A stretch of 64,000 nt of DNA from Nemertoderma westbladi (Eukaryota; Animalia; Xenacoelomorpha). Positions 1,271 through 48,871 of this stretch are shown piece after piece. The DNA lies in contig JAUCBJ010006695.1 in the NCBI GenBank assembly GCA_032718475.1, positions 124,001 to 188,000 of the forward strand, read 5' to 3'. How positions within the stretch are numbered: the stretch's first letter is position 1; every line of letters starts with the position of its first letter. A model generated the notes under the pieces. That model did no database searches and had not been told where the DNA came from. It saw only the letters and a list, made by a program, of their open reading frames with translations. Position numbers and translations under genes: made by a program.

Positions 1271-1271
1271 T

Positions 1272-3045: not shown

Positions 3046-3051
3046 GATTTA

Positions 3052-15634: not shown

Positions 15635-16915
15635 TGTACGCGCTTTTGAAGACCTTTAGCAGTTTGACCTGCCAAAATTTATATGTCTTTTGGTTTATAA
15701 ATATACTTTAGAAGAAGACAAATATTTTATACCAATAAACACAACATTAGCAGAAGCCAGCCTAGTGCGCGTCCATTCACCCGCTGGATAATCCCGGGAG
15801 ACTGGATTCTGTCGGCTTAAATTATTATTGCAGTGAAGCTTACGGTATTGTATTATTCGATTGATCGTTAATAATTAATTTCTGACTAATATTATTTACT
15901 TTCGGGAAATATTAACAGTTCCTTTAGGACGTGGCGCTCTATCTAGGTAAACAGAGATATGACTTATACTAATCACAATGGTAAGTCGGTAAGGCTTAAG
16001 ATTCACGTATGAGGCGCATTCTTTAGGAAATGCTTAGTTATCAATCACAATCATGCACACTACCGGTAACACACAATACTGCTCACTAATTTGCCGACAG
16101 TCAATGAATTTTATCATATATAAAGAGAATAGCAACGGACCAATGTAGTGCTTATCAAATAGCATTAAATTCACTACAAACCACAATAATATAAGTCGCA
16201 ATCGCTATATATAACCCGTCTCTCTAACCTGTAGTGTATCAAGAAAATTGGGAAATTTGGGTTCTTTATATATGTTCTCCAAATAATATTCAACCAAACA
16301 CAATAGTAAACAGCAGTATAATAATGTATATTGAACCGATAATATAAAAACAGAAACCAGTTGATATGAATTGAATTGCATTGAAGTGATAAGAATTGTT
16401 GTTGATAACAGTCATACGCTCTATAATTTTAGCCTACTAATGTTTCTTATAAAAGTATGAAACGAATTGATTCTAGAGCCGTTGTTCCTGGCCTAGACAG
16501 CAATAACAACAAAGTATCAAGAAAAAACTGTAAGACTGAACACACTCCTTATGATCGACCGAAAAGCTACACGTCGACAGGAAAAATCTCTCTGATTGGT
16601 TCAAGCCAAACAAAGAACCATGCGTCCAATGGCTGTTTCCATGTCAGCAACCAGCTGTTAGATGTCGTAATATGAATCATCACGGCTAAGCTATGAAGGG
16701 TATTTGTCACATTGCAGGTTTTTTGTCTTACCATGTCCGCTAAAACACGTATATAGCAGAATGACTTTTATGTCCGTTAAAACACCTGTAACGGTACCTT
16801 GAGGGCGAGGGGAATATTTATACAGTTAGAGAACCTTTTTAGAGTATTCCAGCGCCTGGGGGGAAACTGGATTGCGAAGCAAAGGGGCCAGTTATATCCC
16901 ACAGAAGCTTTTACA
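15635..16915 (-). repeat. 3' LTR of element A
   Basis: Direct repeat of 33053-34333. Only 2 mismatches noticed by eye. Confidence 0.97.
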
Positions 16916-16923: not shown

Positions 16924-16993
16924 AGAAAATGGGATTTGAGTCTATAAAATATACAAAATCACAGTTTCTAATATACGTAAATACTCTAAACAG

Positions 16994-19900
16994 TTAGTCT
17001 TTCTTGCGCGGACGGCGTTTACGCAGTTTTTTAAAGCTAGCAAGAGTCCTTTTCTCTTTGGGGCGAGCCACTTTACAAGGAGGGCTATAACTCCTGGGTG
17101 AAGGGTGCAATATGATTGCATCAGAGGGTGTAGGATTATGGTCGGTGTATCCGCCAGTCGAAGTACCGGGTTGATTGACGTCAACGTCAGGTGAGAGGGG
17201 TCTAACGGCTTTGAGAGCTCGTTTCAAGACAGCCGCTCTTACGGGTCCTTTACGAGTGGTCTGAACGAGGGCCGTGGGTGGACCATAGGCAGTTAGAAAC
17301 TTCCGGGGTTTAATGGTCCTTTCCAACTCGCGTTCGCGGGCTCGGTATTCGTAAGGCCTTCGATGTACTTCCTGCAACTCGGGATGTGAGTTAACAAACA
17401 AGTCTCCATAGTCCGGATCCTGACGGATATAATTGATTAAGTTATAGGAATGAAGGTCGCTAGGATTAACACTCCTGAGAAATTTGCGTACGAATTTAGT
17501 TGAAATACATTCTCCGACGCGCTTCAGTAGCTCGTAACTCGATATGCGTGATTTCTGTTCAACAGAAGCGAATAGATAAGGATGGAACGCATAAACTCCT
17601 TCGTAAGCGCGTCCGGGATAATAGCGATGGCGCGAATCACAATGTAAATCAGCGTTCGCTTCCCAAGCTCTGATGTAACGCAGTGTGATCATTTCATCTA
17701 CGCTTTCTAAATCGTGATTAAAAGGGCAGTCGAAACTAGCATGTCCCTTTAGTTGACAATGGTGACATTGAGTCATAAATTGAGGGCAAACCGCAAAGAT
17801 ATGCAGGTTATTGAGTCTGCAATATGCGCAATAAATTTCCATAGTTGGTTGTTCTTGGAAATAGGAACAGCGGACGTTGGTGTCCATGGGAGTATCGTGG
17901 TCTCTCGAGGCGCATAACTGACAACGTTGCCTAGAAACATAGTTGGCATGGCGATAATCGTACGCCGTGAGACACTGTGGGCCTTGATACCATTCTATGA
18001 TGTAATCGTTGTCGCTGGTCCGGGGCGCGATAGGCTGAATCTCTTCAGATTCTAGACATATTGGTTCGTCTTCCAAGTGCATAGCTGAAGTGGGTGTGTC
18101 TGTCTCTTCAGGTGGACCTATCGTCTGAATTTCCACAACAGAGTAACCTGTGGGGATTCGAGGTCTTTGTATAACTGAGGAGTGCAAGTTCGATATACAA
18201 ATCTCTTGGAAAATGGCGAATCCAGCGCTATCCAACTTCTCTGCAGCTGAGTTTCTTAGGCTGAGTTTGGTCAAAGCGCGGTCTTTAAATTGGCTATCCA
18301 CGTTGCGAAACGGGGTTAAAAATCGCCGGAAACATTCGAAACGGATGAATTTATTATGTTCATCTAGCTTGGCGAGTTTGGTCCCAAGTATTAATGGATG
18401 GGCACGTATAGTACGACTGCACACATCGGCTAGCCAACCGGCAAGTGCGGTGTTTTCAAAGATCGTGTATATAGCTAAGGAGGGACGGAGTGGAACACTC
18501 ATGAAGCTATACACGGCGCCAGGTGCGGTCAATGGTCCATCAAAGTATAATCGAGAATAATGGTCTCCGTATACCTGTTGATAGTTAATGGGATTTCCGA
18601 CCTTGAAATTCCATCCGTATTCCTGAAAGGCAAGATGTCCGATGGAAGTTCGTTGCACCTTGGTAATGTTGCTAGACGTATTAGCATACATGGTGCGGAA
18701 GAAACCTCGACCTTCTGCCCAGGGAGCAATCAGCTGAGTATCAACGAAAGGGTATGGAATGTCCTCCATATTCCGAAAGTCGTTTTGGAGATCTCCATAA
18801 ACAGCTGAGCCGATTTTAAGGATTCTTTTGTTGAACAACATCTCGAGTACGGGCTGGGGTAACATCGATCCATCGATGCCCATGGCCGGTTTGCGTTCGG
18901 TGTCAATGACGTAACGCTGCGCGAGTTCGAATTGTCCATGTCGGAGATTCTTTTGTGTTTCGGTGAGAGTTTCAAAAGAATAATCAATCAAGTCGGAACA
19001 CGCTCGAGTAAACACGTGGGTAGAACCAGCTAATCCGCGGATGTGGATCATGCGCGTAGTTCCTAGCTCTCCGACCGGAACGCTACCTTCATTATCGTAG
19101 GTGACAACTCCATACATCTCAATAACATTAAGAGTTTCATTCCACTCCTTGGTGGCGTTCTCTAGGGTCATCCCTACTGGATGCCACAAGGTGGCGCATT
19201 GGTTAGCGTCAGGGAGATCACTATACTTCATATGCCGAGTGGTATACGTCTCCACATTTCCAAATCTTTGTATTTTCTCTTCTTCAAATAATACATCTAG
19301 ATTCCAATGGACTAATCGAGTTTTAATAAATCCATCGAGGTTATAAGGAGGTTCTATATCTTTCTCGATTCGAGAAATGTTATATGGTTTTCTAAATGAG
19401 TTTACCTTTACTAACTGATCCAGATGTTTCTGCAATTGTTCAAGTTCGACAATGTCGAGAGGATTTATTAGTGGTAGAAACTTTAAATCATGTGTCGGGT
19501 CTTCTGGTTTTACCATATAATATTGGGTCAGATTAACGTAATAAGGGTGGTCTTTAATCCCGTAAAACGAGTTCTGTAAAGGTCTAGCGCGTATGTTGAC
19601 ATCGTGTACCATACGACGGACAAGATCCGCTCGATTGTCCGGAGGTTCAACGAGTATACCGTCAACACGAGCGGCCTCGATCGGCGGACGCTGTAACATA
19701 GGGGCGTCAGCGATGAGGTTTTGCGATCCTGTACTGATATCAACCGGTTGAGGTTGTATCGTCGCGAAGAGCTTGTCTCCGAAATGTGGAATCATAGAGG
19801 GACGACGAACGGTTTTAGAGTAGAGGTCCGTCATGAGGATTTGAGCTTCAGGTTGGGCTAAAGCGGCTTCTTCTCTTTCTTCCAGTTTCGTGTGTTTCTC

Positions 19901-21247
19901 TTCGATTAGATTTTCTTCCGCTTGTCTCTGTAAGCGTTCATCTAAAAATTCTTGTAGAGAATACGTGCGTCCAAGCTCGATGTCTTCCTCGAGGTTTTGG
20001 ATTTCTCTATCGAACTGTGGCAAGGCTAACTCCTTCACCGATTGGACTTGTTGTTGTAATTTACGTTTCTCTAAACAATCTTGTGTCCCCTTTCCGATTT
20101 TCTGTCGAATGGCGTCTAAAGCGTTTCTTATAACACTCTCCTCGACTTCCGTGGCGGGTTGTATCGGGTTTAATCCTGGACGATTGTAAGGATCAAAGGG
20201 CGATATTAGCTGCCTGCGTCCCAATCCGGCTAAGTAGGATGGGCGGATGTCTAACGAACCCACTACCGGAGCACCACCGATTAGTTGTTCGGGTAACACT
20301 AAGTCTTTGAACAGGGAATATAGTTCGGGAGGATCAGTGATACTGTTAGGATCAAGAGTTTGAGGTCTCACTAGGGAATGAGGAGGCCTGACCGAGTATT
20401 CCGGAACTCTGATCATGGGTTTATTCAGTGATCGTTTAAGACGAGCGATCGTGGGTGGTATGTCGAACAGGTTTCGCTCGAAACTCCCGTAAGTGTAACG
20501 CGTAAAACTATGTTTAGCGCAACGTCTCCGCGGATGTTTATGTCTTTCAGTTTGTTGGTTAGGTCTAGGACATTCGTCACAATAATACCAAAGAAGTACG
20601 TCCTGTAGAGGAAACGCGGGTGTTCGTTCTCCAGTTTTGCAGTATTCTTCCATTTGTTCAAAACTATCCGGGATAACAGGTAGTGGACGATCGGCGGTAA
20701 GATACATCATAGTGAAATAGAGCCGTTTAAGTTCTAACACAGGGTCGTGATGTATACCTTGAGGATATCGAGTCTCTAAGTTCTGCTGACTAGCGACATT
20801 GAGATAGGTTTCTCTCAAAAACTCTAAGTATTCGTTGAAGTCGATGCGTTTATCCGGTTCTTCAACGTTTTCTCTTTCCAGTCTATTACGAATAGAATTT
20901 TCGTGATCTATTCTCGGTTTATCGTTACGACTCCACTGGGTATGATATTTAAATAGAACCATTTCCCTTTCTGTATCTTTATCGTCCGTATCATGTAAAT
21001 CGATAGGATGGCCGGTCGTTAGGAAGTCCATATACGTACCATTATGATTCGTATAGCGAGTGGTGAATTTTCGATAGTCCAATTCACGCGCAAGTTGCTC
21101 TTGGGACATCGGCGGTTCGATATAACGACCATCGTCCTCCGTAATGGTTGGATCGGCTTCACCGCGTATTAAGCTATCCACAAATGCTTGTAAAGGTAGA
21201 GTATATCGCTCCCTAATACCAAGATCATCTTCTATTAACTCCATCAT
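16994..21247 (-). CDS. Retrotransposon ORF3, 1417 aa: DEDDy-like 3'-5' exonuclease domain, CCHC zinc knuckles and basic C-terminal tail
   Basis: ExoI VVTYDNEG. WRN/EXD-like stretch LPQPVLEMLFNKRILKIGSAVYGDL...FVDTQ. ExoIII-like PLRPSLAIYTIFE. Canonical knuckle CHHCQLKGHASFDC plus two variants. C-terminal KKLRKRRPRKKD. Confidence 0.85.
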   Translation of the reverse strand: MMELIEDDLGIRERYTLPLQAFVDSLIRGEADPTITEDDGRYIEPPMSQEQLARELDYRKFTTRYTNHNGTYMDFLTTGHPIDLHDTDDKDTEREMVLFKYHTQWSRNDKPRIDHENSIRNRLERENVEEPDKRIDFNEYLEFLRETYLNVASQQNLETRYPQGIHHDPVLELKRLYFTMMYLTADRPLPVIPDSFEQMEEYCKTGERTPAFPLQDVLLWYYCDECPRPNQQTERHKHPRRRCAKHSFTRYTYGSFERNLFDIPPTIARLKRSLNKPMIRVPEYSVRPPHSLVRPQTLDPNSITDPPELYSLFKDLVLPEQLIGGAPVVGSLDIRPSYLAGLGRRQLISPFDPYNRPGLNPIQPATEVEESVIRNALDAIRQKIGKGTQDCLEKRKLQQQVQSVKELALPQFDREIQNLEEDIELGRTYSLQEFLDERLQRQAEENLIEEKHTKLEEREEAALAQPEAQILMTDLYSKTVRRPSMIPHFGDKLFATIQPQPVDISTGSQNLIADAPMLQRPPIEAARVDGILVEPPDNRADLVRRMVHDVNIRARPLQNSFYGIKDHPYYVNLTQYYMVKPEDPTHDLKFLPLINPLDIVELEQLQKHLDQLVKVNSFRKPYNISRIEKDIEPPYNLDGFIKTRLVHWNLDVLFEEEKIQRFGNVETYTTRHMKYSDLPDANQCATLWHPVGMTLENATKEWNETLNVIEMYGVVTYDNEGSVPVGELGTTRMIHIRGLAGSTHVFTRACSDLIDYSFETLTETQKNLRHGQFELAQRYVIDTERKPAMGIDGSMLPQPVLEMLFNKRILKIGSAVYGDLQNDFRNMEDIPYPFVDTQLIAPWAEGRGFFRTMYANTSSNITKVQRTSIGHLAFQEYGWNFKVGNPINYQQVYGDHYSRLYFDGPLTAPGAVYSFMSVPLRPSLAIYTIFENTALAGWLADVCSRTIRAHPLILGTKLAKLDEHNKFIRFECFRRFLTPFRNVDSQFKDRALTKLSLRNSAAEKLDSAGFAIFQEICISNLHSSVIQRPRIPTGYSVVEIQTIGPPEETDTPTSAMHLEDEPICLESEEIQPIAPRTSDNDYIIEWYQGPQCLTAYDYRHANYVSRQRCQLCASRDHDTPMDTNVRCSYFQEQPTMEIYCAYCRLNNLHIFAVCPQFMTQCHHCQLKGHASFDCPFNHDLESVDEMITLRYIRAWEANADLHCDSRHRYYPGRAYEGVYAFHPYLFASVEQKSRISSYELLKRVGECISTKFVRKFLRSVNPSDLHSYNLINYIRQDPDYGDLFVNSHPELQEVHRRPYEYRARERELERTIKPRKFLTAYGPPTALVQTTRKGPVRAAVLKRALKAVRPLSPDVDVNQPGTSTGGYTDHNPTPSDAIILHPSPRSYSPPCKVARPKEKRTLASFKKLRKRRPRKKD

Positions 21248-21288
21248 ATCTGCTATCTGAGTTTATTAATATCAAATAAGTTTGTATT

Positions 21289-21440
21289 TAGGCGAGCGGG
21301 CGTCGCTGCCTACTTTTCTTTGCCCCCGGACAGTGGGATTCTCAGCGCTGATGTACCGTCGTCGCGGTGTTTACGCCAACATGTAGCAACAGCACGACAA
21401 CGATAACCGGCACAAGTCACTCCACTGTCCGTCCCAAAGG
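21289..21440 (-). ncRNA. Predicted structured cis RNA element just upstream of the ORF3 start
   Basis: Nested stems CGGACAGTGG/CCACTGTCCG and CGTTGTCGTG/CGCGACGACG plus a TAGGC...GCCTA hairpin. Conserved at 47152-47303. Confidence 0.55.
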
Positions 21441-22868: not shown

Positions 22869-25800
22869 TCACGTTAGGGAGTCCCTAGATGTTTGAGGTA
22901 TTAGGGAGGTGGTCGTGGGAAGAGTGTCTTGCCTTCCATAGTTCCCGGAGAGTTCTCTGTCTCTTTCCAGTAAACATAAACGACCAACTGGGCGATTGAG
23001 TTGTTGCGTCTCAAAGATGATGCCTGGTTTCTTGAAGTTACGCCGCATGACGATGAGTTCTACTGAGCGTACTAAACCATCATCTGAAATGTGTGTCTCG
23101 ATGATACGACCTGTCTGCCACCGTTTACGCGGGAGGTCTGGATCTACAATAAGCACCATATCTCCGGCGCTGACGTTTTCTTGCTGCGCAAACCACTTAG
23201 TTCGAAGTTGTAGCGTGGGCAGATAATGTTTCTCGAAATGGTCAGCGAAACGACGGGATAGCAACTGCATAAGTTGCCAAGTTCGACGGCAGTATTCGTC
23301 TCCGTCGGCAATCTCCGATCGTGGGAGCATGGCTACGGGTTTCTTCAGTAGGAAGTGCGCGGGTGTTAGCGCTTCCAGGGAATCGGGACTCGATGAGACT
23401 GGCATAAGCGGTCTCTCGTTGAGATAGGCAGCGATTTCCTCCATTGACGTCCGCAAAAGTTCGTCGGTGAGATACGCGCGGCATGGCACTATAAAGTGAA
23501 ATGCGGTTTTGACACTTCGAATTAATCTCTCCCAACTTCCTCCCCACCAAGGGGCGTCGGCAGCGTTGAAGGTTCAGCTAGACGCTGTTATCCTTAGCTG
23601 GTCGTCCACCTGTCTTTGGTTCCAGTCCCTCACGTAAGCCTGTATCTCGTTGTTGGCACCTATGAAGTTCGTTCCTTTATCCGATCTCATGGTATTACTC
23701 ATCCCGAAGCGAGCGATCTGTCGTCGTAAACTTAAGACGAAGCTGTTAGTAGATAGATCGTTCACCATATCGAGATGGATGGCTCTACAAGTCATGCACA
23801 CGAAGATGACACACCATCTCTTGACTATAGTCCTCGCACGATATACTTCAATAGGGCCAAATAAATCTACACCAGTATTAGTAAAAGGTGGTTCATAGAA
23901 GCTTACTCGTTCCCTAGGTAATTCTGCCTCTCGCTGTGTTAAAGGCCTACTGAATGCTTTCCTACAGGGTATGCAGTTCCTAAGAACTTGGTTCAGAGCT
24001 CTACGGGGTTTATCAAAATAATAGCGAGTTCGAATTTCGCTAAGAATTCGTTCTCTACCAGCATGGTAAAGTTTACCGTGAACGTCTACAATCATCTTGA
24101 TTTGTACTTCAAGATTTCTAATAAGTATGGGGAATTTGGTGTCAAAGGATACGGGCGCGTTGGTGAGTCTTCCTCCAACACGTATTAACCCATCTATCAT
24201 TGTGCTCGAGAATCGATCCCTTAAGCGCATCTGTGGATTTCTCAACAACAGGAAGTACTTTTCGGAATCCTCATAGCATTGCAGGAGTCTCAGTATCTGT
24301 TTATTTGTTTCTTCATACTCCTGGTGACTAATTTTCTCTTTTAGAAAACGATCAGATATCCTATATTTGGGTAAATTCTTAATAACATGAACTTGTGCAG
24401 ATGTCAATGGAGCGTGATCACTAATGGTCTTCGTCCTGGAGTAGTGATGATGAAAACATCGTCTTAAATATGTGACGGCTTTACAGAGCCGATTCCAGGA
24501 ACTGTAATGATGCATTGCTCTCTGCAGCATGGGTGAGATTCCTTGCGAGACGTCTGGTATTCCAGATTTCCAATCTCTATCTCTAATTTCCACAACAGAC
24601 TTATTTGTGTTGAGGGATTGTGGATCCGAAACATCATTCCCGGAAGTGTGTAATACGGATAGATCGATAGTCGGTTTAAATAACTTCGATTTACTCGCCC
24701 GGGTTTTAGGTTTGACTGTCTCCGTTCCCTTGGCTTGTCTAATCTCTGCCGTAGTAAGGTGAGGAGGCCATTCATCTTCTTCCTTGCTCAGGAAGTCGGG
24801 TCCACCCAACCAATCTGGAGTATCTATCAGTTCCTGTGGAGTTGCTCCCCTGGAGGCGATATCGGCTGGATTAATTGTACCAGGGCAATGTCTCCATTGA
24901 TCTATCTTTGTGCGACTAAGAATAATAGCTACTCGGTTAGTAACAAAAACGCTAAACTGACAGACTTCATTGGTGAGATACTCCAACACGAGTAAAGCGT
25001 CGGTCCAATAAACCGTTTTCTCCAGTGGATAGTCGATTTGTTCCGTTACGTTCCGGCCGATGGCTGTAGCGTATAAAGCCGCCTTTAACTCCGCTCGAGG
25101 AACCTTTAGCTTGTTGTTAATCAATGCCTTAGAGGTAACCAAGGCGACTTTGATTCCATCCGGAGTTTCGACTCGCAGATATGCTACTATACCTATTCCC
25201 ATGTCGCTGGCGTCTCCAAACACATGGAGTTGATAGGAATACGTAGGAAGAACATGGCCAAAATATGCACGGGAAATTATAAAGTTCTCGATGGCAGGTA
25301 GAGAATCTTCCCATTTCATCCATTTCTTCAACAATTCTCCCTTAAGCGGATCGTCCCATGAGTGGTTTTCAAGCCACATCTGTTGTACTAAACTCCGAGC
25401 AATCAATATAACTGGGCTAATAAATCCCAAATGGGTCGAAATAAGTGCTCAGGATACTTAAACAAATCCGTTTGGTCCGAACTGGATTATCTCGCTGTTT
25501 CAACTGAAAAAACAGGATGTCTCTTTCAGTGTCCCACTTCAAGCCTAGCGTCTTGGTTTCAGGAAGATCGTCCTTTATTAAGTCTAGGTCTTTCGCTCCG
25601 CGATCTTCTACCGGTATGGCTTCCAGAAACTCACGGGAGTTGCTAGTGAATTTCGTCAGTCGAAATCCACCTCTTTTCAAACACTCTACCGTTCCTTTCG
25701 CGACAGCTATGGCTTCTTCTACTGATGGAAGGGACCTTAAATTGTCGTCCATGTATATATTGCGTTTTATGTTGTCTATCACTTCTTTGGAGAAGGAGTC

Positions 25801-28800
25801 TCAGTTGTCATTCGCAGTGGTTCGCACCATGGAGCAGGCATTGGAAGGGCTTGATATGATCCCAAAAGCCTGGATGGTCATCCAGTACTCTACCGGTTTC
25901 TGGTTGAGGTCTCCTTCAGGCCACCACAGAAATCTCAGGCTATCTCTATCTCTATCCAGCGCCTTGACTTGTAAGAACATTCCTTCGATATCAGAGGCGA
26001 ACGCGATGGAATATTGTCTTAATCTTAATAGTATTCCCAACAAAGATTGGAGTAAGTTGGGTCCTGGTAACAACTCGGAATTGAGGGATTGGCCCATATA
26101 TAGAGCAGAGCCATCAAATACGACTCGTACTTCATGGGGTTTACCGGGTTTGGGAACGTAATGATGTGTTAAATAATACGTTCTCTCAGTCACTGGTGTT
26201 CCTTCCGGTACTCGCTCCGCGTATCCCTTTGTTATAAATTTCTTCAGCTGAGTTTGGTACATTTCTTTCGCTGAAGCATTAGCTGTAAGTCGTCGATATA
26301 ATTGAGCGATTCTTTTCTCTGCCAAGGGTCTGTTATTTATAAATCTAGGTTCTCGTTTTCGAAATGGTAGGCCGATTTCATACCTACCTTGGTCCTTTAA
26401 AAAACGTGTAGTTGTTTCCTGGATTTGCTTGGCTCTTTCTTCTTCTATCGATAGAGCCTTATCTTATGAATTGGGCTCTACCAGTTCCTGAGTAAAGAAT
26501 CGTACAGCTAGTTCGTCCCGAGTTCTAGCGTTGTAGCGCTCTATCTCATCGTTTAGTTCGTCATTGTAAGCGATGGGTTCCGATGGGTGAATCAGTTGAC
26601 ATAGGTTCACCTGACTTTTCCAATTTTGGTTTTCTGTAAGTAGGTCGATTGTGTTCTCTTCATCGAAGAGTTGGTAGATGTCGTCATTATCTGAGGAGTA
26701 TGGTGTTCCCTCAGTTAGTTCGTCCACCTCACTGCTCTCCACTTCCCAATCGTGTACTTGGTATGTGGGTTCTTGTGGCATTCTCTCTTCGAGAGTCCTG
26801 CGGGAAGGGCCAGTAAAGTACCAACCTACTCTAGTTCTTACTGCATAGGTTTGCAGTGGCTGTGGTTGAGCAGGCCGTTTCTCCAATGTTTCAAGCGCCT
26901 CATGCGCGTTCTGGCCGATGAGGATTTGCACTCCAGGATAATCTGTCTGGAATCGAGGTATCTCAAGATGTTGGATGCTCTCATCCTCGTCCCAATTATA
27001 AAGGTCTGCTTGAGTAGTAGCGAAGTTCTTTATAGCCACCATTTTTACCGACCTTATACCTTGTGTTCCTAACTTATCCTGGGGGGTGGACAACACACCT
27101 ACATAGTAATCTGCCGTTAAGGTAGATTTCCAAACCTGCATAATTCCTGACATATTCAATTTAGTCCGGAATTTGGGTTGTCCAGCAAAGATATCCTCGG
27201 CTAATTCTTGATCGATGAATGTTCCTGTGCTGCCAGAGTCAAGGAGGGCGTTCACTATGTAACTTTTATTAAGACCATGAACTCTTACCTGCACCACAGG
27301 AAATTCTCTGATTCCTACGTTGGAAGTTGGAGCTTTCCAAGATGGTTGTTTGGCAAAAGTAGTTGGGGGAAACTCATCGTTGGTGACCTTTTCATAAGTA
27401 AGTGCTCGATACACTGCGGTATTGATTAGATAACAGGATTCGTTGGCGTCGGAGAATTCGTCAGTATAGAATCCTTCCATCTCAGACTCCTGATCAGTGT
27501 CATTTACATCACTGAATTGGACATGTAGTTCGGGCTCACTTACCTGACTCTGTTTGTCTCGTTCGAACTCACTGTGTAACAAGATGTGATGTTTCGCGCC
27601 ACACTTTGCACACTTTATGTCGGAGTAACAGGTTCGCCGTTGGTGTCCTGGTCTGAGGCAATTATAGCATAACCGCTTGTCCCACACAACTGCACGTCTG
27701 TCTACAAGGGATTTCTTTAGAAATTCAGCACACGTACTCAAACGGTGGGTCCCGTCGCACAGCGCACAGTTAGGTTTTATGTTACTCACTTTACCTTGGG
27801 TAACTTGATGCACTCTCGTTCTTTCTTCGGGTTTTCTTCGGTGCATTCTGTTAGGAGACTGAGGAGGGGTCTTGGCAACCTGTTCTCTCCTATCGTTGTT
27901 TCGAGCCTTGTATTTACTTACATCTTTTGAGGTTTTGTCGACGTAGTAAGATCGCTCAGTATCTTTCCCGCTGTCCTCTTCTTGAGAAACTTGGCTTTCG
28001 CCGTCGTCAGTGTAACACACCGGTGTTATTCTTCTCCTAGAAGCGGGTTTCTCACTTACCTTATTTTCCGATGTTTTCTCTCTGGACTGCTTGATGAGTT
28101 GTAGTTTTACCTCACCATCTAAGAAGGACATGAGATCAGCCATGGTAGGACTTCGTCGTTGTTGTTCATTCATGTACAACACTTTCTTGTCCCAGCGTGT
28201 ACATACTCCACCCTTTGGTAAAGTAGAGACTACGGCTCCAATAACCATTGAACTCTGATATTCATGAGACTTACCCAACCAGTCCAATTGTCTACAGATC
28301 TCCTGAATTTCATCGGAAAACTCTATAATCCCGCTACTAAGGAAGTGTCGGGGGGCTACTAATTTTGCATACAAATACTTAGCTATGTTATCCTTGTTAC
28401 CATACCTGATGTTTAATGTATCCCATACTTGTCTTAATCCTTCTGGATGTCCAATAAACTTTAACGCCATTAACTTGGGAGGTCCTTCCAAGCACTTGAT
28501 GAGGAACCTAAGTTTCTCTCCGTTAGATAGCACAGAGTTCTGTATGCTGTCTTTGTAATATTCGTTGAAAGGTAACCATTTCATCTCATCTCCATTGAAT
28601 TTGACGATCTCTCCCACTTTGACCGCTTGGCGGGCTTCTGTTCTAGCCATCTGCCGCGTAAAGCTTTCTTGGGCCATCGTGTTATTTAATATCGAATTAT
28701 CGGTATATAAATTTCTCGGATCAGTATCAGGTCTATAGGGAATATCATTAATAACAGGTCTATAATCACCCTTAATAGGGTTTGCTATAGGAGTTTCTAC

Positions 28801-30891
28801 TTCACTAGCAGTATAGATGCGTGTAGGTTCCACACCTTGCGCATGTAAGACTTCAGACCTAACAGGTTGACACAATGTTACAGGGGGTATTGGTATTCCC
28901 TTTTGTATATTGACTAATTTGTCGCGTTCTAGCGCGATACTTTGCTGCACTTCTTGCAATTCGGCCCTACTTTCCCTTACTGTTCCCTTAAGCTGGTGGA
29001 CAGTCTCCTGCATCTGTCCGAGCAGGAGATTCATCCCCCGCCGTCCCTCCTCTACCCACTCAACCGCCGAAGCGGGAGTCGCCAACATTGTAGCGGGCTG
29101 ACGTGGGATGACGGGAGACAAATCTTTGATTTCTCTCTCAGCTTCCAGGACAGGAATGTTCTCATGGACTGTTCTACCGGGTACAGGCAGTGTAGTACTG
29201 TGTAAAGGGAACTTAGAGTTAAGCTCTGGAAGTACAGGGGTCTCTAGCACAGGTGTGACTTTGGGAACGACAGGCCTAATTATTTCAGGCTCATCAACTA
29301 TTGTAGGGAGTCTTTTGACCTGAATAGTTTGGTATATGGGTTCCGTACTCGCTAAGTCTGTGCTAGCTAATTGTCTTCTAACAGCTGGGGGCAAATCAGG
29401 CAATTTGTGACGATGAGATGTTTTTCTACGCCTGCTTAGACGAGATCTATTTCCTCCGCCTTCAGGATCGGTGGTTTCACTTTCTTCCGAGGATGTGTAT
29501 CCCTGGCGTTTGGGAGTAGATTTTCTCATCATCTGCATGTGACTAGCAGTTAACTGTTTATTTATGTTGTCTTGCGTCTCTTGCAGATTTTCCAACTCCA
29601 GTTGGGTAGTCTGCTCAAACGCTCTCCGTTCTGCTTCTGCCACTGCTCTTTCCGCCTTTGCTTCTGCCGCCGCTGCTTTTCTTTCTACTTCTGCTTCTGC
29701 CGTAGCCGCCGCCTTTTGTTCCTCTATCCGTCTTTTCTTTACTTTTTCTTCTTGGACTCTAGCGAGGCGGAGTTTTTCATCAAATTCTGCTTGGTTAGCA
29801 GCTAACATTTCAGCATCGATTGAATCTAACACACGCTGGGTTCCTTCACTATTGGGGGAAAGTCCAGACAGCCGTCTCCTCAATTCTTCGTCTCCTAGGA
29901 ATCGCTGATAGTCGGACAGATAAATGTCTATGGCGTCTCTCGCTCGTGGTTTCTCTGAGGTCTCTTCGCCTTCCACTTGAGAAAGGGTGGCATCGGTTGG
30001 TTCTTCATAAGTTAGTCTCTCAGACAGCTGTGATTTCCACTGGTCTGTTTCTTGGATTTGGAGACCTATCCGCTGGAACTAAGTTTTGACAGCAACCTGC
30101 AGTGACGTGTCCTGTCTTCTTTTGGAAGTTTCCTCAAAAGCTGATAGGATTAGTCGAATGCGTAGGGTTCTTTCGCGTACTTGATATAGCAGTTCTTCCT
30201 GCTCTTGAGGTCCTTGGGGTTGTCGAAACAGTTGTTCTTCTAATCTCTCTAAGGAGCCGAAGAATCCCTGCACATATCCTGCTGCCGACCTCTTCCAAAC
30301 AGCTGGATCCATCGTATCTTTTGCCACTCCCATCCTGTGTATATCTTCCCAAGTAGCCTCGGACAGATCCAACGGGAGTCCGGGTCCGGGAAAGTTCCAT
30401 TGTGACTCGACAATAGACATCAATTCTTCCCTGGCGTATCCCGCATAATTATCTTGGGTCGCTCGCTTATTTCTCGCCCAATCTGCTTGATGTTCCTCCA
30501 CCGCAATCAATATAGTTGTTAGCACTGCGGCAGGAAGGGTGAGAAGGGGGTCCGAGTAGGCTTTAGACGTCATCTGCAATCCACGTTCGGGGGTCAGTTC
30601 GACAGTATCCGAACTACTGGAGCTATCTGATCGCTGGGAACAAGTTTCTTGACTAGGCTGTTGCTGCTGTGGGACAGCTGCTTCCTGGTTCCGTTTGACT
30701 TGAGCCCGAGTGCCGATGATGGACCTACGGTGTTGGATTAGCTTAGGGTCCGATATCACTACTGGAGGGATGACTTTTCTTTCAGTAGGAGGTGAGCTGA
30801 ACTCCTTTCTTAATCGCTCAACACTCCTATCTGTGTCACAGATGGTTGTATCGATTAGGCTGTCTGACAGGGTTTGCTGAGTGTCAGACAT
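22869..30891 (-). pseudogene. BEL/Pao gag-pol of element A, disrupted by 4 in-frame stops and 1 frameshift
   Basis: Gag FNGDEMKW and three Cys/His fingers, PR ALLDSGS, RT YMDD, RH LHVFGDAS, IN GVDLFGP/SDKGTNF/WERL, C-terminal LTPAHFL. Stops at 30079 (TAG), 26464 (TAA), 25801 (TGA) and 23574 (TGA). Extra base near 25430. Confidence 0.93.
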
Positions 30892-33041: not shown

Positions 33042-33052
33042 ATGACTGTTAT
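33042..33052 (-). other. Non-tRNA primer-binding site ATAACAGTCAT, complementary to LTR 33823-33833
   Basis: Abuts the CA end of the 5' LTR, has no TGG, and has a perfect 11-nt complement inside the LTR. Confidence 0.75.
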
Positions 33053-34333
33053 TGTACGCGCTTTTGAAGACCTTTAGCAGTTTAACCTGCCAAAATTTAT
33101 ATGTCTTTTGGTTTATAAATATACTTTAGAAGAAGACAAATATTTTATACCAATAAACACAACATTAGCAGAAGCCAGCCTAGTGCGCGTCCATTCACCC
33201 GCTGGATAATCCCGGGAGACTGGATTCTGTCGGCTTAAATTATTATTGCAGTGAAGCTTACGGTATTGTATTATTCGATTGATCGTTAATAATTAATTTC
33301 TGACTAATATTATTTACTTTCGGGAAATATTAACAGTTCCTTTAGGACGTGGCGCTCTATCTAGGTAAACAGAGATATGACTTATACTAATCACAACGGT
33401 AAGTCGGTAAGGCTTAAGATTCACGTATGAGGCGCATTCTTTAGGAAATGCTTAGTTATCAATCACAATCATGCACACTACCGGTAACACACAATACTGC
33501 TCACTAATTTGCCGACAGTCAATGAATTTTATCATATATAAAGAGAATAGCAACGGACCAATGTAGTGCTTATCAAATAGCATTAAATTCACTACAAACC
33601 ACAATAATATAAGTCGCAATCGCTATATATAACCCGTCTCTCTAACCTGTAGTGTATCAAGAAAATTGGGAAATTTGGGTTCTTTATATATGTTCTCCAA
33701 ATAATATTCAACCAAACACAATAGTAAACAGCAGTATAATAATGTATATTGAACCGATAATATAAAAACAGAAACCAGTTGATATGAATTGAATTGCATT
33801 GAAGTGATAAGAATTGTTGTTGATAACAGTCATACGCTCTATAATTTTAGCCTACTAATGTTTCTTATAAAAGTATGAAACGAATTGATTCTAGAGCCGT
33901 TGTTCCTGGCCTAGACAGCAATAACAACAAAGTATCAAGAAAAAACTGTAAGACTGAACACACTCCTTATGATCGACCGAAAAGCTACACGTCGACAGGA
34001 AAAATCTCTCTGATTGGTTCAAGCCAAACAAAGAACCATGCGTCCAATGGCTGTTTCCATGTCAGCAACCAGCTGTTAGATGTCGTAATATGAATCATCA
34101 CGGCTAAGCTATGAAGGGTATTTGTCACATTGCAGGTTTTTTGTCTTACCATGTCCGCTAAAACACGTATATAGCAGAATGACTTTTATGTCCGTTAAAA
34201 CACCTGTAACGGTACCTTGAGGGCGAGGGGAATATTTATACAGTTAGAGAACCTTTTTAGAGTATTCCAGCGCCTGGGGGGAAACTGGATTGCGAAGCAA
34301 AGGGGCCAGTTATATCCCACAGAAGCTTTTACA
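33053..34333 (-). repeat. 5' LTR of element A
   Basis: Direct repeat of 15635-16915 with TG...CA ends. Confidence 0.97.
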
Positions 34334-39080: not shown

Positions 39081-40272
39081 TGTAAAAGCTTTTGTGGGAT
39101 AACTGATTCGTTTGCTTTGCTAACCAGTTCCCCCCAGTCGCTGAATACTCTAAAAAGGGATCTATAGCTAAAATAGTGCAAGCTACCAGCTTATTGGCTG
39201 AGGGGCTGTACGAAGGTATCTGGGTTCTGCTCGATCGGCCAACCAGCTTAGGGAGGTTGCCTCAGCCATGCTGTCCGTATCGGCCAATAGAATTTGAGTG
39301 GGCGTTGATTTTGACCTATCCCAGAGCTACTGAACTGAATTTCCTATCTGTATGCTCATCCTCTGTGTTGGACGGGAGCTTCGGGGAATAAGGGTAGTTG
39401 GTATCCTCGTATAGTCATGTAGTCACATGTTTCTGTTGTTGTGTTCCCATTTTTCGCCATAACACCGGCTTTTGGAACAACTCTAGCAAAAACTGCTTAG
39501 ATTATAGAAAGTATAACTGTTACCGGCGGTACTTACCAACTAATCGGCACACGGCACGGACTTTAATTACTAATCATATTGTTTGTACTGCTATTTACCA
39601 TCAGTTATTAATTGTATCGATTTGTTGATGAAATATTGTCATTTGGAGAATATTGATAAATCACCCAAATTTCCCAATTTTCTTGATACACTACAGGTTA
39701 GAGAGACAGGCTATATATAACAATTGCGATTTATATCAATGTGGTGTGTATTGAATCTAATGTTATTTAGTAGACACTACCTGAGTCAATTGCTGTTCTC
39801 TTTATGTGTGATCAAATATACTGACGGTCGGCAGAATAGTGTGCATGATTGTGAGTGTGACTGGTAACAAAGCATTTCCTAAAGAATGCGCCTTATACTT
39901 TAATCATAAGCCCTATCGTTGCGTTTAGTATAAGTCCTAGCTCTGTTTAAATAGATAGAGCGCCACGTCCTAAAGGAACTGTTAATATTTCCCGAAAGTT
40001 AATAATATCTGTCAGAAATTACATATTAGCGATCAATCGAATAATACAGTAGGTTTACACTGCAACCTTACACTGCAATAATAAAATCTAAGCATCCGAA
40101 TTCAGCCTCCCGGGTGTATCCATCGGGTGAATGATCGCGCATGGGCTGGCTTCGGCTAATGTTTTGTTTATTAGCATAAAAATATTGTCGTATGCTAAAG
40201 GTGTGTTAATTAACTAAAAGACATATAAATTTTGGCAGGTTAAACTGCTAAAGGTCTTCAAAAGCGCGAACA
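39081..40272 (+). repeat. 5' LTR of element B
   Basis: Direct repeat of 48872-50063. Two mismatches noticed. Confidence 0.97.
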
Positions 40273-40284
40273 GTAACAGTTATA
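40273..40284 (+). other. Non-tRNA primer-binding site GTAACAGTTATA, complementary to LTR 39512-39523
   Basis: Abuts the LTR end and has a perfect 12-nt complement, TATAACTGTTAC, in its own LTR. Confidence 0.75.
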
Positions 40285-42525
40285 AATCTTATTGCAGTAA
40301 GCAATAAGGTTGCAAAATACCGTAGTGACCGGTAAATCTGAACCGGTACTTCTGTAGGTCAGTAGGCCCAACTGCCAGAACCGGTACTGCTGTAGGTCCG
40401 TAGGTCCAACTGCCAGAACCGGTACTTCTGTAGGTCTGTAGGCCCAACTGTCCTAACCGGTACTGCTGTATCAGTACATTAGTATTATTCGAATTTGATT
40501 AGTGTATACCGGTAGGTCTTAGTACTTAATCAGGGACTGCAGCCCTGAATTTTTATTGAGATTCTACTTATTTCTGTCGGTTTTATTTACTAGTAGGCTA
40601 ATATTGAGCAGAAGGCGTGTGACCCTGCTCAGATTGTTCAGATAATTGTAGGCTGAGCTGCTGTCTGACTGTTGTTGGGTTTGGAGAGATTACGGCGTGT
40701 GTAGAGTTTGTCTGATAAAGTGCCGTTAGTAAGTTGGGGCAGCCATATGCTGTAAGGTCAATCCCCTCTTAAAGAATAAGTCGTACTACCGTGTTAGAAC
40801 GCATACTAACTAACTATTTCAGAATCTGCATATACTGTAGTTTATTTAGGCTTGATCGTAGTCTGCCAGCGTTTTAGCCTGTGTTTGTTTGTGTGGTCTG
40901 TTCAGGTACCGTAATAGTTATTACTCAGATATTTTGTAGGCTGGATTGTTGTCTAGCTATTATTAGGTCTGAAGAGATTGCTGTGTGTGTGGAGTTTGTC
41001 TGATAAAGTGCTGTTAGTAAGTTGGGGCAGCCATATGCTGTAAGGTCAATCCCCTCTTAAAGAATAAGTCGTACTACCGTGTTAGAACGCATACTAACTA
41101 ACCATTTCAGAATCTACACGTACGGTAGTTTATTTAGGCTTGGTGGTAGTCTGCCAGCGTTTAGTTTGTATTTGTTTGAGTATTCTGTATGGGTAGCGTA
41201 ATATTTATTATTCAGAGTTTATGCGATTATTCGCAACATTCATGTCCCCAAGTTTATTCCTACAGTAATTGTGCTTGTTATACATACCGTTATAGTTAAA
41301 TTAACCCCGGTACTACACGGGCTGCTTGGCGTAGGACAAGACTGGTGACTTTGTGCTCTGGTCACTCCAGCAGATGCCGTGGTTCTTTTAACTGTTCAAG
41401 TATATTTAACTACTGATTATTTGTTGTACCGGTACTTGTACCTAATTTAGGGTTTAGTGTACAGTGCTTTCCGAAGTAATTAGTGTGTAGGCAGTATATT
41501 TGTGTTGTAAAGTGGTTGATAGGCACATTCGTTAGCTCTATTAACTTCTGGGTAGGAACACTCCGTGATACATAACGTAGTACCTATAGCGATACGGTTA
41601 TAGGTCGTCAGGCGGTGGTATTTTCCTATCTGGACAGTGCAATATATTTACTGCTACTTATTATTTCAAATACCGTAGTACCCTGTCCGTTGTAATAACC
41701 AGAAATCTAACCCTTTGTTAGGCTGGTTTGTAGACTTCCTGTAAAATTACCCTAAAAATTTCGTACGTAATATTTTTGTTGTGTTTTAATTAGAGAATTA
41801 ATCTCACCCGTATCGTAAGTAATTTGTAGTATTAAGTAACTTAGGTAAATTAGAATTATCTGTTTTAGTGTCAAATAAGTAGCACTTCACTGAGAGCGCA
41901 CAGCTTTTGTGTAGTGATTACTTCCCAGAAATAATAACATTTATTTCAAATATTGACAAAACCCATTTTAAACGGGTATATAAATATTATAAATCAACTC
42001 AAACGATTTATAAATAGTAGGCCTGCCATACAACAACTAGGTCTCCATATCAGTTGGACTACTGCTTAAATAACGGTAATAAAGTAAGTAAAGTAACCAA
42101 GTAACCCTAACATTCAGAAATTCAATTATTTTAAAATAATTGACATACCGGTATTTACAATAGGCTTATTATATTTATTCGATAAATTTAGGCTGAAATC
42201 ATACCGGTACTCTGTAATTAATTCTAGTCCAGAATTATACTTATATACTATAAGTGTAAGCTGCATACCGGTATTCACGATAGGCCTATTATATATTTAT
42301 ATATATTTGTGCTAAAATTATATACCGGTACTCTGTGACAAATCTAGTCTGTAATAATACTTATATATATACTATAAGCATACCGGTATTCTAATATATT
42401 GTATATATATCACGTTACACCGAGTAACGGTATCGGTAATTAATCGCTAGGCTTGCAGTGATACTGAATTACTAGACTTGCTTTAACTGTAATATAGCAG
42501 TAGGCATTCAACTGTACAAACAAAA

Positions 42526-45500
42526 ATGTCTGACACAAAACGGGCACTGTCAGATAGTCTTTTGGAAGGTGTTAGAATGAGTCTTAGACTTGGACAGGGT
42601 CTTGAAAGGAAGATGGCAGAGGCAATGGCAACAGCAGAAGCGAAAAGAAAGGCGGCAGAGGCAATGGCAACAGCAGAAGCGGAAAGAAAGGCGGCAGAGA
42701 CAATGGCAACAGCAGAAGCGGAAAGAAAGGCGGCAGAGGCAATGGCAACAGTAGAAGCGGAAAGAAAGATAGAGACACCTGTACTCCCAGAACCTGCCTA
42801 TAAATTCCCTTTGTACAGTACTAAACTACCTGTGCCCAGTAGGACTGTTCCCGAGTCCGAACCCGTCCTGGACGCCGAGCGAGATATCAAGAATTTATCG
42901 CCCGTCGTCTCTCGCTCGCCCGCTACTACGTTGGCGACTCCCGCTTCGGCGGTTGAGTGGGTAGCTGAGGGACGACGGGAGATGGGTCTCCTTCTCGAGC
43001 AGCTGAGGGAACACTGTTTGTGCTCCTCTCAGCAGGTCCGGGAAATGGAAGAGACTGTCCAGCAGCTCAAGGGAACAGTAAGGGAAAGTAGGTTAGAGTT
43101 GCAAAAGGTGCAGCAAAGTATCGCGTTAGAACGCGATAAATTAGTCAATTTACAAAAGGGTATACCACCACCCCCTGTAACAATGTGTCAACCCGTTAGG
43201 TCTGAAGTATCTCATGCGCAAGGTGTGGAGCCTACACGCATCTATACTGCTAGTGAAGTAGAAACTCCTATAGTAAACCCTATTCAGGGTGATTATAAAC
43301 CTGTTGATAATAATATTCCATATAGACCTGATCATAATCCGAGAAATTTATATACCGATAATTCTATATTCAATAATACGATGGCTCAAGAAAGTTTTAC
43401 GCGTCAAATGGCTAGAACCGAAGCCCGTCAAGCGGTAAGGGTTGGAGAGATCGTCAAGTTCAATGGAGATGAGATGAAATGGTTACCTTTTAATGAATAT
43501 TACAAAGATAACATACAGAATTCTGTGCTATCTAACGGAGAGAAACTCAGATACCTCATTGAATGCTTGGAAGGACCTCCCAAGTTAATGGCATTAAAGT
43601 TTATTGGACATCCAGATGGATTAAGACAAGTTTGGGATACATTAAACATCAGGTATGGTAACAAGGATAACATAGCTAAGTATTTGTATGCAAAATTAGT
43701 AGCCCCCCGACACTTCCTTAGTAGCGGGATTATAGAGTTTTCCGATGAGATTCAAGAGATCTGTAGACAACTGGACTGGTTAGGTAAGTCGCATGAATAT
43801 CAGAGTTCCATGGTCATTGGAGCCGTAGTCTCTACTTTACCAAAGGGTGGAGTATGTACGCGCTGGGACAAGAAAGTGTTGTACATGAATGAACAACAAC
43901 GACGAAGTCCTACCATGGCTGATCTCATGTCCTTCTTAGATAGTGAAGTAAAATTACAACTCATAAGGCAGTCCAGAGAGAAAACATCGGAAAATAAGGT
44001 AAGTGAGAAACCCGTTTCTAGGAGAAAGATAATACCAGTGTGTTATACTGACGACGGCGAAAGCCAAGCTTCTCAAGAAGAGGACAGCGGGAAAGACACA
44101 GCAAAATCTTACTATGACAACAAGACCTATAAAGACGTAAGTAAATACAAGTCTCGAACCAGTGACAGGAGAGAACAGGTAACAACAACTCCTCCTACGT
44201 CTCCTAAGAGAATTCACGGAAGAAAGCCCGAAGAAAGAACGAGAGTGCAGAACGTTAACCAAGTTAAGGTGAGTAACATCAAACCAAAATGTGCGCTGTG
44301 CGACGGGCCCCACCGTTTGAGTGCGTGTGCTGAATTTCTAAAGAAATCCCTTGTAGACAGACGTACAGTCCTGTGGAATAAGCGGTTATGCTATAATTGC
44401 CTCAGATCAGGACACCAACGGCGAACCTGTTACTCCGACATAAAGTGTGCAAAGTGTGGCGCGAAACATCACATCTTGTTACACAGTGAGTTCGAACGAG
44501 ACAAACTGAGTCAGGTAAGTGAGCCCGAACTACATGTCCAATTCAGTGATGTAAACGACACTGATCAAGAATCTGAGATGGAAGGATTCTATACTGATGA
44601 ATTCTCCGACGCCAACGAATCCTGTTATCTAATCAATACCGCAGTGTATCGAGCACTTACTCATGAAAAGGACACCAACAATGAGTTTCCCCCAACTACT
44701 TTTGCCAAACAACCATCTTGGAAAGCTCCAACTTCCAACGTAGGAATCAGAGAATTTCCTGTAGTGCAGGTAAGAGTTCACGGTCTTAACAAAAGTTACA
44801 TAGTGAACGCCCTCCTTGACTCCGGCAGCACAGGAACATTCATCGATCAAGAACTAGCCGAAGATATCTTTGCTGGACAACCCAAGTTCCGGACTAAATT
44901 GAATATGTCAGGAATTATGCAGGTTTGGAAATCTACCCTAACGGCAGACTACTATGTAGGTGTGTTGTCCACCCCCCAGGATAAATTAGGAGCACAAGGT
45001 ATAAGGTCGGTAAAAATGGTGGCTATAAAGAACTTCGCTACTACCCAAGCAGACCTTTATAATTGGGACGAGGATGAGAGCATCCAACATCTTAAGATAC
45101 CTCGATCCCAGACAGATTATCCTGGAGTGCAAATACTCATCGGCCAAAACGCGCATGAGGCGCTCGAGACATTGGAGAAACGGCCTGCTCAACCGCAGCC
45201 ACTACAAACCTATGCGGTAAGAACTAGAGTAGGTTGGTACTTCACTGGCCCTTCCCGTAGAACTCTCAAAGAGAGATTACCTCAACAACAGGTATACCAA
45301 GTAAAGGGGGAAGTGGAGAGCAGTGATGTGGACGATCCAACTGAGGGAACACCATACTCCTCAGATAATGACGATATTAACTCCAATGTAGATCAATGGA
45401 GACATTGCCTTGGGACGATTAATCCAGCCGACATCGATTCCAGAGGAGCAACTCCTCAAGAACTGATAGATACTCCAGGCTGGTTAGGTGGATCCGACTC

Positions 45501-45720
45501 CTTAAGTAAAGAAGAAGAAGAATGGCCTCCTCATCTTACCACGGCAGAAATTAGACAGGCCAAGGGAGCGGAGAAAGTAACACAACAACTCAATCGCCCA
45601 GCTAGTCGTTTATGTTTACTGGAAAGAGACCGAAAACTGTCCGGAAACTATGGAAGGCAAGATACTCTTCCTACGGCCGCTTCCCTGGTCCGACGAATGT
45701 CTGGGGACTCCATAACGTAA
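42526..45720 (+). CDS. Gag-protease ORF of element B (RT, most of RNase H and integrase deleted in frame), 1064 aa
   Basis: Near-identical to gag-PR of A, with ALLDSGS intact. Fused to DQWRHC..NPAD and to the natural pol C-terminus. Confidence 0.88.
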   Translation: MSDTKRALSDSLLEGVRMSLRLGQGLERKMAEAMATAEAKRKAAEAMATAEAERKAAETMATAEAERKAAEAMATVEAERKIETPVLPEPAYKFPLYSTKLPVPSRTVPESEPVLDAERDIKNLSPVVSRSPATTLATPASAVEWVAEGRREMGLLLEQLREHCLCSSQQVREMEETVQQLKGTVRESRLELQKVQQSIALERDKLVNLQKGIPPPPVTMCQPVRSEVSHAQGVEPTRIYTASEVETPIVNPIQGDYKPVDNNIPYRPDHNPRNLYTDNSIFNNTMAQESFTRQMARTEARQAVRVGEIVKFNGDEMKWLPFNEYYKDNIQNSVLSNGEKLRYLIECLEGPPKLMALKFIGHPDGLRQVWDTLNIRYGNKDNIAKYLYAKLVAPRHFLSSGIIEFSDEIQEICRQLDWLGKSHEYQSSMVIGAVVSTLPKGGVCTRWDKKVLYMNEQQRRSPTMADLMSFLDSEVKLQLIRQSREKTSENKVSEKPVSRRKIIPVCYTDDGESQASQEEDSGKDTAKSYYDNKTYKDVSKYKSRTSDRREQVTTTPPTSPKRIHGRKPEERTRVQNVNQVKVSNIKPKCALCDGPHRLSACAEFLKKSLVDRRTVLWNKRLCYNCLRSGHQRRTCYSDIKCAKCGAKHHILLHSEFERDKLSQVSEPELHVQFSDVNDTDQESEMEGFYTDEFSDANESCYLINTAVYRALTHEKDTNNEFPPTTFAKQPSWKAPTSNVGIREFPVVQVRVHGLNKSYIVNALLDSGSTGTFIDQELAEDIFAGQPKFRTKLNMSGIMQVWKSTLTADYYVGVLSTPQDKLGAQGIRSVKMVAIKNFATTQADLYNWDEDESIQHLKIPRSQTDYPGVQILIGQNAHEALETLEKRPAQPQPLQTYAVRTRVGWYFTGPSRRTLKERLPQQQVYQVKGEVESSDVDDPTEGTPYSSDNDDINSNVDQWRHCLGTINPADIDSRGATPQELIDTPGWLGGSDSLSKEEEEWPPHLTTAEIRQAKGAEKVTQQLNRPASRLCLLERDRKLSGNYGRQDTLPTAASLVRRMSGDSIT

Positions 45721-48793: not shown

Positions 48794-48871
48794 CTGTTTA
48801 GAGTATTTACGTATATTAGAAACTGTGATTTTGTATATTTTATAGACTTAAATCCCATTTTCTGGGAGCGG

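Follow-up and report, generated by a model that had tools for sequence, protein, structure and literature searches.

Structure of the BEL/Pao element and layout of ORF3

We analyzed a 64,000-nucleotide stretch of the genome of Nemertoderma westbladi (Xenacoelomorpha; contig JAUCBJ010006695.1, positions 124,001 to 188,000), hereafter the window. A BEL/Pao long terminal repeat (LTR) retrotransposon of 18.7 kb occupies positions 15635-34333 of the window on the minus strand, and the subject of this report is its ORF3, a long open reading frame (ORF) located between pol and the 3' LTR (Table 1). We assigned the element to BEL/Pao because DUF1759, an aspartyl protease, Peptidase_A17, the integrase H2C2 domain, and DUF5641 are encoded upstream of ORF3, and because PF05380 is present in 120 of the 120 homologs among the matches listed for the RNase H-integrase part. 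The order of gag, protease, reverse transcriptase (RT), RNase H, and integrase, together with the BEL-typical DUF1759, Peptidase_A17, and DUF5641, is that of a BEL/Pao member.

ORF3 starts 1621 nucleotides (nt) past the last stop codon of pol, and 78 nt separate its end from the 3' LTR. The initial annotation of the window, made from the sequence alone, had described a long intact sense ORF that is not env-like, and this description holds for the entire length of 1417 amino acids (aa). The highest hydropathy value of any 19-residue segment is 1.21, and thus neither a membrane segment nor a signal peptide-like segment is present; the usual cut-off for membrane segments is about 1.6. Homology to fusion proteins is also lacking, as Pfam and PDB searches returned no family match for ORF3. 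Judged by its sequence, ORF3 is therefore not an env gene though it occupies the env position.

The motifs highlighted in the initial annotation (D-x-E, LP..L..LF, Y-x3-E, a CxxC cluster, and a basic tail) were all found where it had placed them. In the N-terminal part, CxxC begins at residue 223 and is accompanied by His and Cys residues at 236-246, and a coiled coil is likely at residues ~379-465 based on a crude heptad score. This part had been called unrecognised, and residues 1-640 indeed gave no useful match in Pfam, the ESM Atlas, NCBIfam, or PHROGs. In the central part, the ExoI candidate is YDNEG at residue 717 (window position 19099), with D718 and E720. ExoII corresponds to LP..L..LF....ILK.G....D at residues 796-819 (position 18862), where the Asp is D819, and is followed by FVDTQ at residue 834, with the DTQ motif at 836. 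The ExoIII candidate is Y927-x3-E931 (positions 18469-18455), with Glu where Asp is usual. Three Cys/His clusters follow, in agreement with the initial annotation in number; their spacings are CX2CX4HX9C (residues 1109-1127), CX2CX5HX4C (1140-1154), and CX2CX4HX4C (1161-1174), so that the canonical CCHC form is confined to the third cluster (one of three), for which the Pfam E-value is 0.3.

Table 1. Coordinates of ORF3, its parts, and the retrotransposon features of the window
Feature	Position	Strand	Description
ORF3	16994..21247	-	1417 aa, intact, no internal stop
ORF3 residues 1-639	19331..21247	-	no recognised family; CxxC...H...C..H cluster at 223-246
Predicted RNase D-type DEDDy 3'-5' exonuclease domain, residues ~705-940	18428..19135	-	
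Three Cys/His zinc-knuckle-like clusters, residues 1109-1174	17726..17923	-	
Basic C-terminal tail, putatively a nuclear localisation signal, residues 1406-1417	16997..17032	-	
BEL/Pao gag-pol, broken	22869..30891	-	DUF1759, knuckles, protease, RT region, Peptidase_A17, integrase H2C2, DUF5641
5' LTR	33053..34333	-	1281 bp, TG...CA
3' LTR	15635..16915	-	1281 bp
Predicted self-primer, LTR nt 501-511	33823..33833	-	exact complement of the primer-binding site, 11 nt Watson-Crick
Primer-binding site	33042..33052	-	no TGG match to transfer RNA (tRNA); hairpin right after, kept in both copies
Second, diverged family copy	39081..50063	+	LTRs 1192 bp, 2 mismatches

Probable assignment of the central domain to RNase D-type exonucleases

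The central domain of ORF3 likely belongs to the RNase D branch of the DEDDy family, as predicted from sequence comparisons. This assignment is based on individually weak, partly independent, but concordant evidence from the ESM Atlas, NCBIfam, a blind profile search of bacterial genomes, and comparisons using a hidden Markov model (HMM) and hhalign. In the Atlas, 24 of the 30 feature matches for residues 680-1020 belong to the PF01612 3'-5' exonuclease set (cosine 0.92), and the ten best family-bearing matches all fall in the same family or clan (10/10). Among the 18,950 models of NCBIfam only two matched, both of them RNase D (E-values 0.012 and 0.034, far under the cut-off). The initial annotation had likened the domain to WRN, EXD2, and Mut-7; its DEDDy-like character is retained here, and what similarity could be measured points to RNase D, as indicated by the DTQ motif and the NCBIfam rnd model.

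A full HMMER scan of 1.84 billion representative proteins with ORF3 residues 640-1236 gave a single match (E-value 3e-7, 29% identity). This homolog, P0001, is an unnamed protein of 648 aa, known from the protein alone, which itself matches PF01612 weakly (E-value 0.2). P0001 retains D-x-E, LP..I..LL....V.K.GS...D, DTQ, and P-x7-Y-x3-E, so that the acidic residues expected to be conserved are kept in this one homolog. The pairwise alignment matches D718 and E720 of ORF3 with P0001, and the P-x7-Y-x3-E register of ORF3 agrees with the top ExoIII site of P0001. P0001 also has three nucleocapsid-like knuckles, and the exonuclease-plus-knuckle layout is thus common to both proteins. A word-indexed protein search found nothing for ORF3 residues 640-1220 and only the query itself for P0001. 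PHROGs contained no useful match to ORF3, and no DNA relatives of ORF3 or P0001 were found in metagenome, viral, prokaryote, or phage collections. Scans of viral sequences using either the pol alignment or RNase D also gave no matches.

We ran a two-row profile (ORF3 and P0001) blind over 201 bacterial genomes, accepting matches with E-values up to 1. Matches were obtained in 55 of the 201 genomes, and in the 61 genomes that were also searched with PF01612, 16 of 17 matches lay inside PF01612 genes. In the reverse direction, an HMM built from 29 of 30 fetched bacterial DEDDy domains scored ORF3 at 14.0 bits, compared with at most 2.6 bits among the controls (300 shuffles, the reversed sequence, and 121 other proteins). 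The hhalign comparison of ORF3 with the bacterial DEDDy domains gave a probability of 92% (E-value 7e-7) over the ExoII-DTQ core, where D819 is paired with ExoII; in global mode, D718-N-E720 was set on the D-T-E of ExoI. The ExoII Asp lies in a K-x-G/H-x4-D context and is accompanied by DTQ, and D819 and D836 are the top-scoring sites, aligned in both hmmsearch and hhalign. ExoII is therefore firm, and ExoI and ExoIII are placed less firmly, through P0001. The predicted catalytic set comprises D718, E720, D819, Y927, and E931.

Several observations weigh against this assignment. The Atlas match shares 154 of 256 features, fewer than the 170 typical of same-family pairs, and its top three matches are unnamed clusters. 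ExoI and ExoIII are outside the top four profile sites in ORF3 and were positioned by the P0001 alignment; global hhalign misplaced ExoIII, and a second alignment with other boundaries left ExoI unpaired. Both ORF3 and P0001 have Y-x3-E in place of Y-x3-D at ExoIII, and the Glu may reduce or abolish activity. The spacing from ExoI to ExoIII is ~85 residues longer in ORF3 than in bacterial RNase D (209 versus 123-142). Pfam and PDB sequence searches missed the exonuclease domain, and no search passed a curated cut-off. Two AlphaFold models had low confidence (predicted local distance difference test scores of 30.9 and 33.5), and Foldseek returned no match for the second of these low-confidence models.

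The nearest Atlas clusters for residues 680-1020 consist of unnamed eukaryotic proteins of ~210 aa, mostly from Basidiomycota where the source is recorded, and of giant-virus 3'-5' exonucleases. These fungal and giant-virus neighbours may hint at where the domain came from, and we do not take them as evidence of transfer.

Purifying selection on ORF3

ORF3 is under purifying selection as strong as that on gag-protease. Between the two copies of the family in the window, the ratio of nonsynonymous to synonymous substitution rates (dN/dS) is 0.18 over 481 shared ORF3 codons (Fisher P 2e-13), well below the value of about 1 that the initial annotation had named as contradicting its reading, and 0.215 for gag-protease. 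Within ORF3, codons 1-125 have a ratio of 0.42 (P 0.056), and codons 1059-1417 one of 0.13. The defective second copy keeps 10 of the 12 knuckle ligands, and all 12 residues of the basic tail are identical in it (12/12), with two silent changes.

Since the second copy lacks the exonuclease domain, selection on this domain was tested with contigs of four public sequencing runs. We used the best-supported 40 of 148 exonuclease variants, each classed singly against the window codon. Synonymous changes account for 34 of these 40, compared with ~30% expected (P 1e-12, rough omega 0.08). All 40 leave D718, E720, and D819 unaltered; silent changes occur around ExoI, at codons 716, 717, and 719. No variant in this set falls at Y927 or E931, which is uninformative given the 108 further positions. 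Over the whole of ORF3, 20 of the 30 listed variants are synonymous (again ~30% expected), and in the N-terminal part 12 of 21 listed (P 0.01), where purifying selection is weaker. The purifying selection, together with an exonuclease core that scores above 300 shuffles, indicates that ORF3 is more than a chance ORF.

Comparison with known exonuclease ORFs

Published examples of DEDDy-type ORF3s come from rotifers, where they occur in Terminons and in the elements Juno and Vesta; they have a DEED tetrad, and the available text does not demonstrate their activity (PMC5408684; Rodriguez, Kenefick, and Arkhipova 2017). The available portions of PMC5718144, PMC6431247, and PMC6338049 give the same account. 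The initial annotation had named rotifer and nematode precedents; those in rotifer LTR elements and Terminons stand, and the word ‘nematode’ occurs nowhere in the accessible parts of PMC5408684 and PMC6431247. BEL/Pao is also unmentioned, along with nematodes, in that part of PMC5408684, and PMC13524379 does not mention an exonuclease. Our literature search found no exonuclease ORF3 in BEL/Pao, a weak negative because the superfamily name with its slash is unsearchable and Repbase and subscription journals lay outside the coverage.

Compared by description only, the ORF3 studied here and those of rotifer Juno/Vesta and Athena/Terminon elements are both RNase D-like DEDDy proteins encoded downstream of pol, in the env position, without a membrane segment. 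Each carries one Asp-to-Glu change in the tetrad, which reads D-E-D-E here and DEED in rotifers. In contrast to the rotifer ORFs, the host element here is a BEL/Pao, and the 1417-aa protein has, besides the exonuclease, a basic tail, a likely coiled coil, and three knuckle-like clusters; according to the available portion of PMC5408684, coiled coils are missing from the rotifer DEDDy ORFs. No rotifer ORF3 sequence was found among the protein-search matches to ORF3 or P0001. ORF3 thus extends the known type of exonuclease ORF3 to a superfamily context that is new as far as we searched, with a new architecture, Glu at ExoIII, and a large N-terminus without a recognised family.

Relative to bacterial RNase D and DNA_pol_A_exo1 (PF01612), the ExoII-DTQ core of ORF3 aligns and ExoI aligns in global mode; in contrast, ORF3 remains under curated cut-offs, has wider ExoI-ExoIII spacing and Glu at ExoIII, and has no detected HRDC domain. 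The RNase D of Trypanosoma brucei (TbRND), which we take to be PDB entries 7C42 and 7C45, resembles ORF3 in that an exonuclease is followed by C-terminal zinc fingers or knuckles, and we consider this an analogy of architecture only. According to the accessible text of PMC7797062, the zinc fingers of TbRND raise RNA binding and cleavage. TbRND differs from ORF3 in being a cellular enzyme that trims guide RNAs, with a canonical DEDD tetrad and four fingers (same source), and PDB searches detected no sequence similarity between the two.

The available papers report exonuclease ORF3s from rotifer elements alone, which are low in copy number, and selection or function could not be shown there. The present ORF3 belongs to a different superfamily and to an abundant family, is under clear purifying selection, and is joined to knuckles and to 640 unexplained residues. 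A selected ORF3 in BEL/Pao argues that such genes do real work and undergo repeated capture. It also provides a concrete protein for asking whether retrotransposon nucleases counter host RNA silencing or serve the processing of their own RNA.

Predicted self-priming of the element and of its relatives

The window element is predicted from its sequence to be self-primed by its own LTR (Table 1). In the second copy, a 12-nt primer match is formed by LTR nt 432-443 and positions 40273-40284, with two compensatory changes. The primer pairing is retained though LTR nt ~100-490 hardly align between the copies, and a TTATAG motif directly upstream is kept in both. The complement was reached by none of 100 shuffles per copy, or by 2 of 100 when G-U pairs were allowed. 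Splice-junction primers in the window LTRs were rejected, as they reach 7 and 6 nt, equalled by 59 and 125 of 200 shuffles, and nothing favours a primer at a poly(A) site, as the LTR of the first copy is without AATAAA or ATTAAA. Tf1/sushi elements likewise have an LTR segment of 11 nt that can pair with the primer-binding site; Tf1 differs in being a Ty3/gypsy element in which the RNase H of RT cuts the 11-nt primer free, and an accessory exonuclease is unmentioned in the available portions of PMC4600332 and PMC7175516.

We surveyed BEL/Pao relatives in the best 80 of 525 loci, many of them near-copies and most of the others too short to tell. An ORF3 homolog was found in none of the 80 (no tblastn match at E-value 0.1, best HMM E-value 0.5), and in 24 of them, by hand count, a terminal repeat was seen no more than 1 kb from the end of integrase. 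It follows that BEL replication in general does not need ORF3, an accessory gene that is absent from the sampled relatives and dispensable in cis. The long ORFs that lie past pol in L002, L025, L048, and L057 are neighbouring gag-pol genes and not ORF3s.

In nine relatives with a readable LTR end, no significant contiguous LTR complement of the primer site was detected. Eight of these nine were tested for splice-junction primers, with L027 dropped for its uncertain boundary, and such self-primers are predicted in four (L036, L039, L060, and L028, representing three distinct sequences). In each of them, an LTR intron of 67-77 nt (GTAAG...AG) leaves a predicted exon junction that is a 10-12-nt complement of the primer site, a result given by 0 of 200 two-base-block shuffles in each case. 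These relatives are distant from the window element (at most 37% identity; the window pol forms a long, unplaced branch in a 58-row quick tree), and their primers are spliced and not contiguous. Predicted self-priming thus occurs in BEL/Pao elements without ORF3. Three further relatives (L008, L017, and L051) share the primer-site motif T-x-AGTTCGAATTT after the 5' LTR, without TGG, a contiguous complement, or a splice-junction match.

Proposed function of ORF3 and alternatives

We tentatively propose, at somewhat less than an even chance, that ORF3 is a maintained accessory gene for a predicted RNase D-type exoribonuclease with knuckles that acts against host silencing and surveillance RNAs. 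The absence of ORF3 from other BEL/Pao elements places it outside the core replication machinery, and this accessory status favours a role in interaction with the host. The protein would enter the nucleus by means of its basic tail, and would likely act in trans, with the nucleus as the probable site. The knuckles may bind single-stranded RNA and raise nuclease activity, as the zinc fingers of trypanosome RNase D do; a predicted two-metal 3'-5' exonuclease with Glu at ExoIII would then trim or destroy RNAs of the host silencing and surveillance response, a substrate that is a guess. Arenaviruses, as far as the available source text goes, offer a viral precedent for a captured exonuclease turned on host defence. 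Overall, ORF3 more likely helps the element against host RNA defences than serves the start of its copying.

A rather unlikely alternative is that ORF3 is a dead or weak DEDDy nuclease serving as an RNA-binding scaffold, either a Rev/CERV-like or an Egalitarian/EXD1-like adaptor that exports, localises, or packages element RNA. Such a scaffold would fit the ExoIII Asp-to-Glu change, the conserved basic tail, and a 1417-aa length of which about half is non-enzymatic; it also has parallels in the nuclear accessory protein CERV of Cer1, required for genomic RNA export (PMC10309623, available portion), and in Maelstrom and EXD1, inactive DEDD derivatives that bind RNA (PMC5408684, available portion). 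However, the four acidic positions and the Tyr are retained in both ORF3 and the 29%-identical P0001, silent variants occur next to D718 and E720, which stay unaltered along with D819 in all 40 listed variants, and the rotifer ORF3s with their own Asp-to-Glu variant (DEED) are considered possibly active in the accessible text of PMC5408684. The same fold and selection evidence is compatible with an active exoribonuclease that processes the 3' ends of the element's own RNA (tails, read-through, or LTR transcripts) in assembly or strand transfer, with no role in defence. This was the role proposed for the rotifer ORFs in the available parts of PMC5408684 and PMC6431247, and nucleocapsid-like knuckles such as those of P0001 agree with it; we nevertheless consider it unlikely, as none of the 80 surveyed loci has an ORF3 homolog, including those 24 in which a terminal repeat closely follows integrase.

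The initial annotation had linked ORF3 to maturation of the self-primer, whereby LTR-derived RNA would be trimmed to the 11-12-nt duplex on the primer-binding site, leaving a priming 3'-OH. The lack of a tRNA site, the exact pairing with the LTR (kept through two compensatory changes), and the ability of RNase D-type enzymes to trim 3' tails of structured RNAs (PMC5408684, in the portion available) are all in keeping with this link. It is weakened because four of the eight testable relatives without ORF3 have predicted self-primers, even if these relatives are distant and their primers spliced, and because Tf1 uses RNase H for the same step, and we now regard it as improbable, although a need particular to this lineage would be compatible with that distance. 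We hold equally doubtful the broader reading of the element as a deep-branching BEL/Pao lineage that combines self-priming with a captured RNase D-knuckle nuclease for primer maturation and provides this enzyme in trans to its defective copies. That ORF3 is a captured passenger, or its exonuclease likeness a product of chance, would agree with the lack of a curated family match and the low AlphaFold confidence. It is highly improbable in view of the dN/dS between copies, the excess of synonymous exonuclease variants, and the four concordant profile lines.

History of the element and other features of the window

The two LTRs of the element differ at 2 of 1281 positions, its ends are TG...CA, and it is flanked by a 5-bp target-site duplication (AATAG). 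These near-identical LTRs identify it as a young insertion. The gag-pol of this copy is interrupted by four in-frame stop codons (30081, 26466, 25803, and 23576), and its frame changes near 25417-25448. Given four stops and a frame change despite such similar LTRs, the lesions probably predate the insertion and the copy likely moved in trans. We also considered whether ORF3 is preserved as pol decays in this copy; none of the five lesions falls in ORF3, which is not significant (P 0.12).

The second copy has an internal deletion (matching 18073-20878) that takes out the exonuclease domain, and most of its pol is also gone. Four 1-base indels are present in its remaining ORF3. The ORF3 deletion joint recurs in three of the four public runs, which suggests an amplified non-autonomous subfamily.

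The leader (2.1 kb) of both copies contains a 288-bp tandem duplication (32178-32753 and 40646-41162). The element is inserted in an array of ~147-bp repeats and inverted repeats that extends on both sides (14500-15630 and 34334-34600). The second retrotransposon copy lies between two related cytochrome P450 reading frames, both uninterrupted (37245-38723 and 55786-57300). Fragments of another LTR element, with a match to integrase H2C2 and a weak match to the BEL RNase H region, are located at 406-3239 of the window.

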